This document shows positions 40,804 through 42,113 of a stretch of DNA of 64,000 nt, piece after piece. Below the pieces are notes generated by a model. It was not told the DNA's origin. It made no database searches and saw nothing but the letters and a program-made list of their open reading frames with translations. Location: assembly GCF_057098645.1 (NCBI RefSeq), contig NZ_CM169472.1, one strand, 5' to 3'. Position 1 is the stretch's first letter. Each line of letters opens with the position of its first letter. Made by a program: the position numbers and the translations under genes.

Positions 40804-40845
40804 TGAACCGCCCCGGGTTTCCTGGAGAGTGTTTTATCTGTGAAC

Positions 40846-41736
40846 TCAGGCTGCCAGATCATCGTTTCCGATGGAAGCATAATAAGCTTTTTCTGCTTCT
40901 GCCGGAGGAGTATGGCCCAGCCTTTCCAGCAATCGTCGATTGTTATACCAGTCCACCCACGTGAGTGTGGCCAGTTCCACTTCTGCACGGTTTTTCCAGC
41001 TCTTACGGTGTATTACCTCCGCTTTGTAAAGACCATTGATGCTCTCCGCCATCGCGTTGTCATACGAGTCGCCTGTACTTCCTGTTGATGCCAGTAATCC
41101 GGCTTCCTTAAGCCGCTGTGTGTAGGCCAGCGATACATACTGAGAACCTTTATCACTGTGATGGACCGTGCCGGACGGTCGACGGGCCCATAACGCCTGC
41201 TCCAGTGCATCCAGCACGAATGTCGTCTCCATGGACGATGAGACCCGCCACCCCACAATGTATCCGGCAAACACATCAATGATGAACGCCACATAGACGA
41301 AGCCCTGCCATGTGCTGACGTAAGTAAAATCAGCCACCCACAGCTGGTCAGGTCGTTCTGCCACGAACTGACGGTTTACGCGGTCGCCTGCGGCAACGGC
41401 TTTCCGGCTGATGGTCGTACGGACCTTTTTACCCCGGAGAACACCGGCAAGTCCCATAACCGCCATGAGACGTGCCACAGTGCATCTGGCCACTCTGATA
41501 CCTTCCCGTAACAACTGACGCCAGACTTTACGCACACCGTATACCTTGTGATTTTCATCGTATACGCGCTGTATCTCTTTCTTCAGCCAGTCATCGCGCT
41601 GCGCACGGGCACTGCGTTTATCCGGATGATGTCGCTGTTGCTGACAGTGGTAATACGTTGACGGGGCAATATGCAGTTCGCTGCATAGCGGTCCGACCCC
41701 GTACTGCTCACGCAGCTTATCCAGCAGTGGCATCAT
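40846..41736 (-). CDS. IS629 transposase OrfB (DDE integrase domain)
   Basis: 296-aa ORF with rve-type DDE catalytic region; overlaps orfA. Confidence 0.9.
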
Positions 41737-42059
41737 TTTTTCCAGAGGCGGTCGAACTCCGCCTTCGCAAAATAAGCGGAAGCCTGGCGAAGGATATCGT
41801 TACTGCGGCGCAGTTCACGATTTTCACGCTCCAGCTCTTTCAGACGCTGACGTTCAGCGGTGGTGAGCCCTCCATCACCGCCCCCGGTATCCCGCTCATG
41901 CTGGCGAACCCAGACACGCAGAGTCTCCGGCGTACAGCCAATCTTTGGAGCAATGGAACAAATTGTCGCCCATTGTGAGTCATATTCGCCCTGACTTTCC
42001 AGAACCATACGGACTGCCCGTTGACGGACTTCAGGGGAAAAACGAGTATTTTTAGTCAT
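41733..42059 (-). CDS. IS629 transposase OrfA (HTH DNA-binding)
   Basis: 108 aa [19 protein letters not shown]…; A-run GAAAAAATG at the orfA/orfB overlap is a likely -1 frameshift site. Confidence 0.9.
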
Positions 42060-42113
42060 CCTGTTTACCTCTTTCTCAGGAAGTTTAGTCTCCAGGATTC
42101 CCGGGGCGGTTCA

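Follow-up and report, generated by a model that had tools for sequence, protein, structure and literature searches.

The IS3-family elements IS911, IS3 and IS2 carry two overlapping reading frames that are joined by a −1 frameshift into an OrfAB product, a DD(35)E catalytic core, ends of the form TG...CA and target duplications of 3–4 bp. IS629, a member of the same family found in Escherichia coli O157:H7, E. coli O145:H28 and Shigella, generates duplications of 3–4 bp and has no sequence-specific target, and IS1203 and IS3411 are regarded as its isoforms (PMC3271280). That individual sites differ in the presence or absence of IS629 is documented in O157:H7 (PMC3271280); the same has been noted in O145:H28 (PMC3893438). 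The gene ynbD encodes the fourth PAP2 protein of E. coli, with PAP2 consensus regions that have been aligned with those of PgpB, YbjG and LpxT; it is without an ascribed function, it did not complement defects in C55-PP and PGP phosphatases, and a K-12 ynbD deletion is viable, as is a strain without all four PAP2 genes (PMC7413402).

In the 64,000-nt stretch of DNA analyzed here (the window), a complete 1310-bp element was located at 40804..42113 on the minus strand, inside ynbD. Like IS629 of E. coli O157:H7, O145:H28 and Shigella, it displayed a length of 1310 bp, the same inverted repeats, an orfA of 108 aa and an orfB of 296 aa, and it likewise carried an ALIL pseudoknot and a 3-bp target duplication (PMC3271280). 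No difference from copies labeled IS629 was found in the element, and the insertion site (codon 138 of ynbD) alone is particular to this copy. The overlapping frames with a −1 frameshift to OrfAB, the DD(35)E core, the TG...CA ends and the short duplication are also those of IS911, IS3 and IS2, whereas the frameshift signals differ, being an A_AAA_AAG-type motif with a hairpin or H-type pseudoknot in those three elements and T_TTT with ALIL in the window element. The locus is almost certainly best read as the product of a simple and recent event, in which an intact IS629 inserted into codon 138 of ynbD on a chromosome of the O145:H28 type.

Structure and identity of the inserted element

The element starts with TGAACCGCCCCGGGTTTCCTGGAGA and finishes with the reverse complement of TGAACCGCCCCGGGAATCCTGGAGA, and its transposase genes, like ynbD, run along the minus strand. 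The left terminal inverted repeat (IRL, TGAACCGCCCCGGGAATCCTGGAGA; 42089..42113, minus strand) is positioned upstream of orfA, with the right terminal inverted repeat (IRR, TGAACCGCCCCGGGTTTCCTGGAGA; 40804..40828, plus strand) at the opposite end. The element ends (TGAACCGCCCCGGG..CCTGGAGA) have TG...CA termini in the TGAAC...GTTCA form and make up imperfect 25-bp inverted repeats, the two arms being identical at 23 of these 25 positions. A degenerate pattern of these repeats matched two sites in the 64-kb window, both of them the element ends, with none expected from shuffled sequence. No second IS629 copy or fragment was detected in the window, either by this pattern search or by blastn of the element. 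The target-site duplication GAC was present on both sides, at 40801..40803 next to the 3′ fragment of ynbD and at 42114..42116 next to the 5′ fragment.

Both transposase genes were intact. The first, orfA (41733..42059, minus strand; 108 aa), encodes a protein with an HTH_Tnp_1 DNA-binding domain that was found in exactly the same form on at least 1000 public contigs. The second, orfB (40846..41736, minus strand; 296 aa), encodes HTH_21 and the rve integrase core according to Pfam; it is in −1 phase with respect to orfA and the two frames overlap (orfA 42059..41733, orfB 41736..40846). In OrfB the catalytic residues D136, D195 and E231 show the DD(35)E spacing, with 58 residues separating the first two and 35 the last two. 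An OrfAB fusion scored 366.6 bits against the NCBIfam model NF033516 ‘IS3 family transposase’ (cutoff 160), and Pfam identified HTH_Tnp_1, HTH_21 and rve/rve_3/rve_2 in it, with an E-value of 7.5e-26 for rve. The fusion used in the Pfam and NCBIfam scans was joined at an A6 run and differs from the fusion joined at T_TTT (both discussed below) in 11 linker residues only, so the domain results stand. Overlapping orfA and orfB in the −1 frame, a DD(35)E rve core, TG...CA inverted repeats and a 3-bp duplication together place the element in the IS3 family. The sequence-only reading had described a complete 1310-bp IS3-family element with intact inverted repeats and both transposase ORFs, and this description was borne out in each part (NF033516 at 366 bits; HTH_Tnp_1, HTH_21 and rve; both ORFs).

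Megablast against 5426 complete E. coli genomes matched 1310 of 1310 bp at 100% identity in many O145:H28 chromosomes and plasmids, and up to at least 40 places were matched in a single chromosome. Identical copies in the plasmid collection were labeled ‘IS629 transposase OrfA/OrfB’ by their depositors (AP019704, AP019707, AP019709), and the names within the 90% cluster of OrfB included ‘IS3-like element IS629 family transposase’ and ‘Putative Transposase for IS629’. By these depositor and NCBI labels of identical or clustered sequences, the element is taken to be IS629 itself, and the earlier description ‘IS629-like’ can be sharpened to IS629 on the strength of 100% identity to copies annotated by depositors as IS629 OrfA/OrfB.

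An ALIL pseudoknot, a stimulator of −1 frameshifting, was identified at 41662..41778 (minus strand) by Rfam RF01497, with a match to the full model (positions 1–117) at 120.2 bits (gathering score 50; E = 3e-32), and PGAP annotates it in identical IS629 copies too. ALIL is described as the frameshift stimulator of IS3411, and it occurs in no fewer than 27 further IS elements (PMC5009743, citing Mazauric et al. 2008). The most likely place for the programmed −1 frameshift is a T_TTT motif (41772..41769, minus strand; that is, positions 41769..41772), within TAT TTT GCG, where the slip would yield an OrfAB product of 404 aa. This probable site was preferred to the more conspicuous A6 run because of an NCBI record of the fusion and the spacing to stem 1 of ALIL, the assignment being based on annotation and model geometry. 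In an exact-sequence look-up, the 404-aa fusion joined at T_TTT was recorded by NCBI on 258 contigs under the name ‘IS3 family transposase’. Stem 1 of ALIL (GGCGG...CCGCC) begins 5 nt past T_TTT, and stimulatory structures are reported to begin 4–10 nt after the frameshift motif (PMC4066793). The A6 run (41736-41742, minus strand; GGAAAAAATGATG) overlaps the orfA stop and the orfB start, and T_TTT sits 31 nt upstream of it. It was rejected as the slip site; the A6-joined fusion had no record in the same exact-sequence look-up, and the ALIL geometry opposes it, with stem 1 beginning upstream of the run.

The route by which the element may have arrived can be outlined from the biology of the IS3 family (IS911, IS3, IS2). 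OrfA and OrfAB would be made from the overlapping frames, the latter through a −1 ribosomal slip at T_TTT stimulated by the ALIL pseudoknot. OrfAB would then bind the TG...CA inverted repeats and the element would be copied out in circular form, its two ends abutted. Pasting of this circle into a target opened by a 3-bp staggered cut would generate the GAC duplication. A copy-out/paste-in pathway is expected for the window element because of the features it has in common with IS911, IS3 and IS2. Because the window copy retains intact inverted repeats and ORFs, its frameshift signal and its DDE triad, and because many identical copies are present in relatives, it is predicted to be transposition-competent, a prediction that fits every sequence feature.

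The interrupted gene ynbD and its empty site

When the IS and one GAC copy were removed, 39897..40803 joined to 42117..42526 gave 1317 nt, corresponding to 438 codons and a stop with no internal stop codon. This rejoined gene had 1317/1317 identity to ynbD as annotated in E. coli 95-3192 (WP_000627337.1, a ‘phosphatase PAP2/dual specificity phosphatase family protein’), and 95-3192 has a single GAC at the site. Extending the comparison by 1500 bp on each side, the window without the IS matched 95-3192 at 4317 of 4317 positions. A match of 3-bp flanks alone would have a 1/64 chance, and this empty-site comparison is the decisive evidence for the insertion. Several earlier claims are settled by the same allele. 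The fragments (413 + 907 − 3 = 1317 nt) were said to form one frame, and did so exactly; the GAC direct repeats at 40801-40803 and 42114-42116 correspond to the single GAC in 95-3192; and the proposed alignment of 39897..42526 to an uninterrupted E. coli ynbD returned an exact match with one GAC. The 439-codon frame holds from the GTG start at 42526 (438 codons plus stop), the start used by PGAP in O145-type genomes. Some annotations appear to start ynbD at TTG 42502, giving 430 aa, as judged from pseudogene coordinates and from the K-12 annotation. The ynbD reading frame is unchanged by the choice between GTG 42526 and TTG 42502. The gene order (ynbC, ynbB and ynbA upstream on the same strand; ynbD; then convergent azoR; then hrpA) confirmed that the insertion lies in the last gene of ynbABCD, as had been claimed.

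Pfam analysis of YnbD placed a C-terminal dual-specificity phosphatase domain (DSPc; E = 1.7e-27) at residues 314-437, and weak PAP2_3/PAP2 matches were obtained at residues 83-206. The insertion falls after codon 137, hitting codon 138 directly before a PSLH sequence that is read as the PAP2 motif-2 site by comparison with the C2 motif PSGH of PAP2 proteins. The break precedes PSLH and thus cuts off the N-terminal membrane part from the other PAP2 motifs and DSPc. Going by the two remaining fragments, ynbD is inactivated as a full-length gene. The 5′ fragment (42114..42526, minus strand) retains codons 1–137 plus 2 nt, encoding the N-terminal part of the PAP2 membrane domain, and reads 16 codons into the IS before a stop at 42065-42067, resulting in a predicted 153-aa product with a 16-aa IS-derived tail. 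The 3′ fragment (39897..40803, minus strand) encodes PSLH onward, comprising the remaining PAP2 region and the C-terminal DSPc. A 363-aa chimeric ORF (39897..40988, minus strand) opens within the IS end and extends, without a change of frame, through the ynbD 3′ fragment; it includes the PAP2 C2/C3 region and the DSPc domain, and a 321-aa version of it is called as a gene in one draft assembly. This ORF is most likely a by-product of the insertion. Scanning for promoters and terminators around the junctions gave matches no commoner than in shuffled sequence.

Across the 5426 complete E. coli genomes, ynbD had a match in 4620 and no match in 806. Among the ynbD-positive genomes, the gene was contiguous in 4602 of 4620 and split or partial in the other 18. 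Given the 806 of 5426 genomes without a match, ynbD is accessory or dispensable at the species level. No downstream gene is exposed to polarity, as ynbD is the last gene of ynbABCD and is convergent with azoR. For its host the insertion is likely to be neutral or close to neutral, ynbD being without an assigned function and dispensable in K-12.

Distribution of the insertion and alternative explanations

The remainder of the window was 99.97–100% identical to genomes of the O145:H28 type, and by this similarity the host background is a chromosome of Shiga-toxin E. coli of the O145:H28 type. The closest complete relative examined, C325 (NZ_CP124819.1), was without the ynbD insertion and had an IS629 copy of its own in ydcF, just beyond hrpA (L008 10460-11770; 99.9% identical). 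At the corresponding site the window has an empty target (34132-34134), visible as a 3-nt overlap of two alignment blocks. As C325 and the window differ at both ydcF and ynbD, IS629 sites are polymorphic between near-identical chromosomes. Elsewhere in C325, prophage genes (terminase, portal, prohead protease) adjoin a truncated hicB (L008 31866-45001). The window is without this prophage, since at 14039/14040 it continues into core genes (pqqU, patD, ydcR, ydcS, curA and others) with 100% identity to those of other O145:H28 genomes. The best genome matches to window positions 42114-64000 covered 99% in two pieces; the gap of ~1% may be due to masking by the BLAST low-complexity filter.

None of the 5426 complete E. 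coli genomes had an insertion in ynbD at the window site. The insertion flanks were matched at ≥99% identity by 26 complete genomes, and the site was empty in all complete genomes that share the window’s background, among them 95-3192, RM12761, RM13514 and C325. Three records covered at least 80% of the 2630-bp query 39897..42526, all with an IS629-type element elsewhere in ynbD. The exact 153-aa chimeric product was, however, found on 5–6 contigs of draft assemblies from NCBI/ENA. Contigs of GCA_032490095.1 and GCA_029357705.1 contained the right junction with 1 and 0 mismatches, respectively, over ~5.5 kb, and broke off 76 and 66 nt into the element, as short-read assemblies are expected to do within repeats. 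The left junction was present on another contig of GCA_032490095.1, which joins 580 nt from the opposite end of the IS to the 3′ fragment and shows a single mismatch over 4487 nt. A search of the literature library for ynbD together with IS629 found nothing. On the junction evidence the insertion is genuine; it is also recent and limited to a small clade. The sequence-only reading had called it recent and precise, which agrees with the absence of any difference in the 4317-bp flank comparison, the identity of the IS to other copies and the count of 0 in 5426; ‘recent’ does not, however, equate to unique to one isolate, as the same junctions were found in a few NCBI draft assemblies.

IS629-type elements were also found at other places in ynbD. 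In Evo1 and CP137705 the insertion lies ~69 nt from the 3′ end of the gene, compared to 907 nt in the window, and in AF57 and AR_0013 it lies at ynbD position 1188. Complete IS629-type elements within ynbD (L002 2070-3379 and L004 2689-3998) were 99.5% identical to the window element, and in a further locus 524 nt of such an element was left in ynbD (L005 2689-3212; 99.0% identical). UTME-3 (NZ_CP168984.1) carried a 100% identical IS629 at its ynb locus (L001 3288-4597) with other junctions; the last 287 nt of ynbD remained on one side and the 3′ end of ynbC was truncated on the other, which looks like an IS-associated deletion of ~1 kb. The elements in Evo1/CP137705, AF57, AR_0013 and UTME-3 hit the same gene in the same orientation as the window insertion, but their positions and backgrounds differ from it, indicating independent events. 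In AR_0013, a group II intron reverse transcriptase gene interrupts the IS629-type element within ynbD. The 90% cluster of the 153-aa product, whose clustering rule biases membership by length, held many other N-terminal pieces of YnbD (119-156 aa) from E. coli and Shigella with ends within codons 126-141, among them one of 131 aa (105 contigs) and one of 136 aa (91 contigs).

One alternative explanation is that a repeated IS copy was misplaced into ynbD during assembly and that the true chromosome has an intact gene. Related genomes contain dozens of identical IS629 copies, repeats are the usual cause of misjoins and the insertion is absent from every complete genome (0/5426). A misjoin would nevertheless not yield a perfect 3-bp duplication with flanks that rejoin exactly, and draft assemblies held the right junction (GCA_032490095.1 and GCA_029357705.1, 66-76 nt into the IS) as well as the left junction (GCA_032490095.1, with 580 nt of the IS). 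Both junctions therefore occur outside the window’s own assembly, which rules out misassembly, and we consider the probability of an artefact to be negligible. That the insertion is common to several assemblies could also be taken as a sign of an old, fixed and immobile relic, with ynbD a long-standing pseudogene of the lineage. This is highly improbable given that the element is identical to many other copies and has kept its ORFs, inverted repeats, frameshift signal and DDE triad, that the interrupted ynbD has gained no secondary mutations compared to the intact allele, and that the site is empty in all complete genomes of the same background (95-3192, RM12761, RM13514 and C325 included).

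The other IS629-type insertions in ynbD, at least 99.5% identical, at other positions and in other lineages and all co-oriented, could be explained by a gene that is preferred or selected as a target, with its loss or the chimeric products being advantageous. Split or partial ynbD genes were, however, seen in only 18 of 4620 complete genomes, four events in one orientation have a p of ~0.125 and are not significant, IS629 is without sequence-specific targeting (PMC3271280), and drift is expected to pile up such hits in a dispensable gene (PMC7413402). An adaptive or targeted origin for the window insertion is accordingly very unlikely. ynbD was also considered as an insertion hotspot, for which the evidence was not persuasive, the 90% cluster of the 153-aa product being length-biased and the split or partial genes numbering the same 18 of 4620. 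The broader proposition, that at least four independent co-oriented hits make ynbD a recurrent target of IS629-type elements, either preferred or positively selected, is likewise improbable, though if it were true then loss of the YnbD phosphatase or read-through into the element would have a role in pathogenic E. coli lineages. Neutral hits in a dispensable ynbD adequately explain the four events.

Significance for annotation and strain typing

The simple insertion of IS629 into ynbD involves a known element and an event of a known kind, and is an ordinary strain-level, clade-restricted gene disruption. In annotation terms, both pieces of ynbD belong with the chimeric ORFs under one IS-disrupted pseudogene and not as separate hypothetical proteins. 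The scientific value is small, consisting of this annotation fix and a typing marker, and the disrupted phosphatase gene is known to be dispensable. IS629 sites already serve in subtyping and in tracing the micro-evolution of Shiga-toxin E. coli, and the ynbD insertion provides one more presence/absence IS629 site, which marks a small sub-clade of the O145:H28-type lineage.
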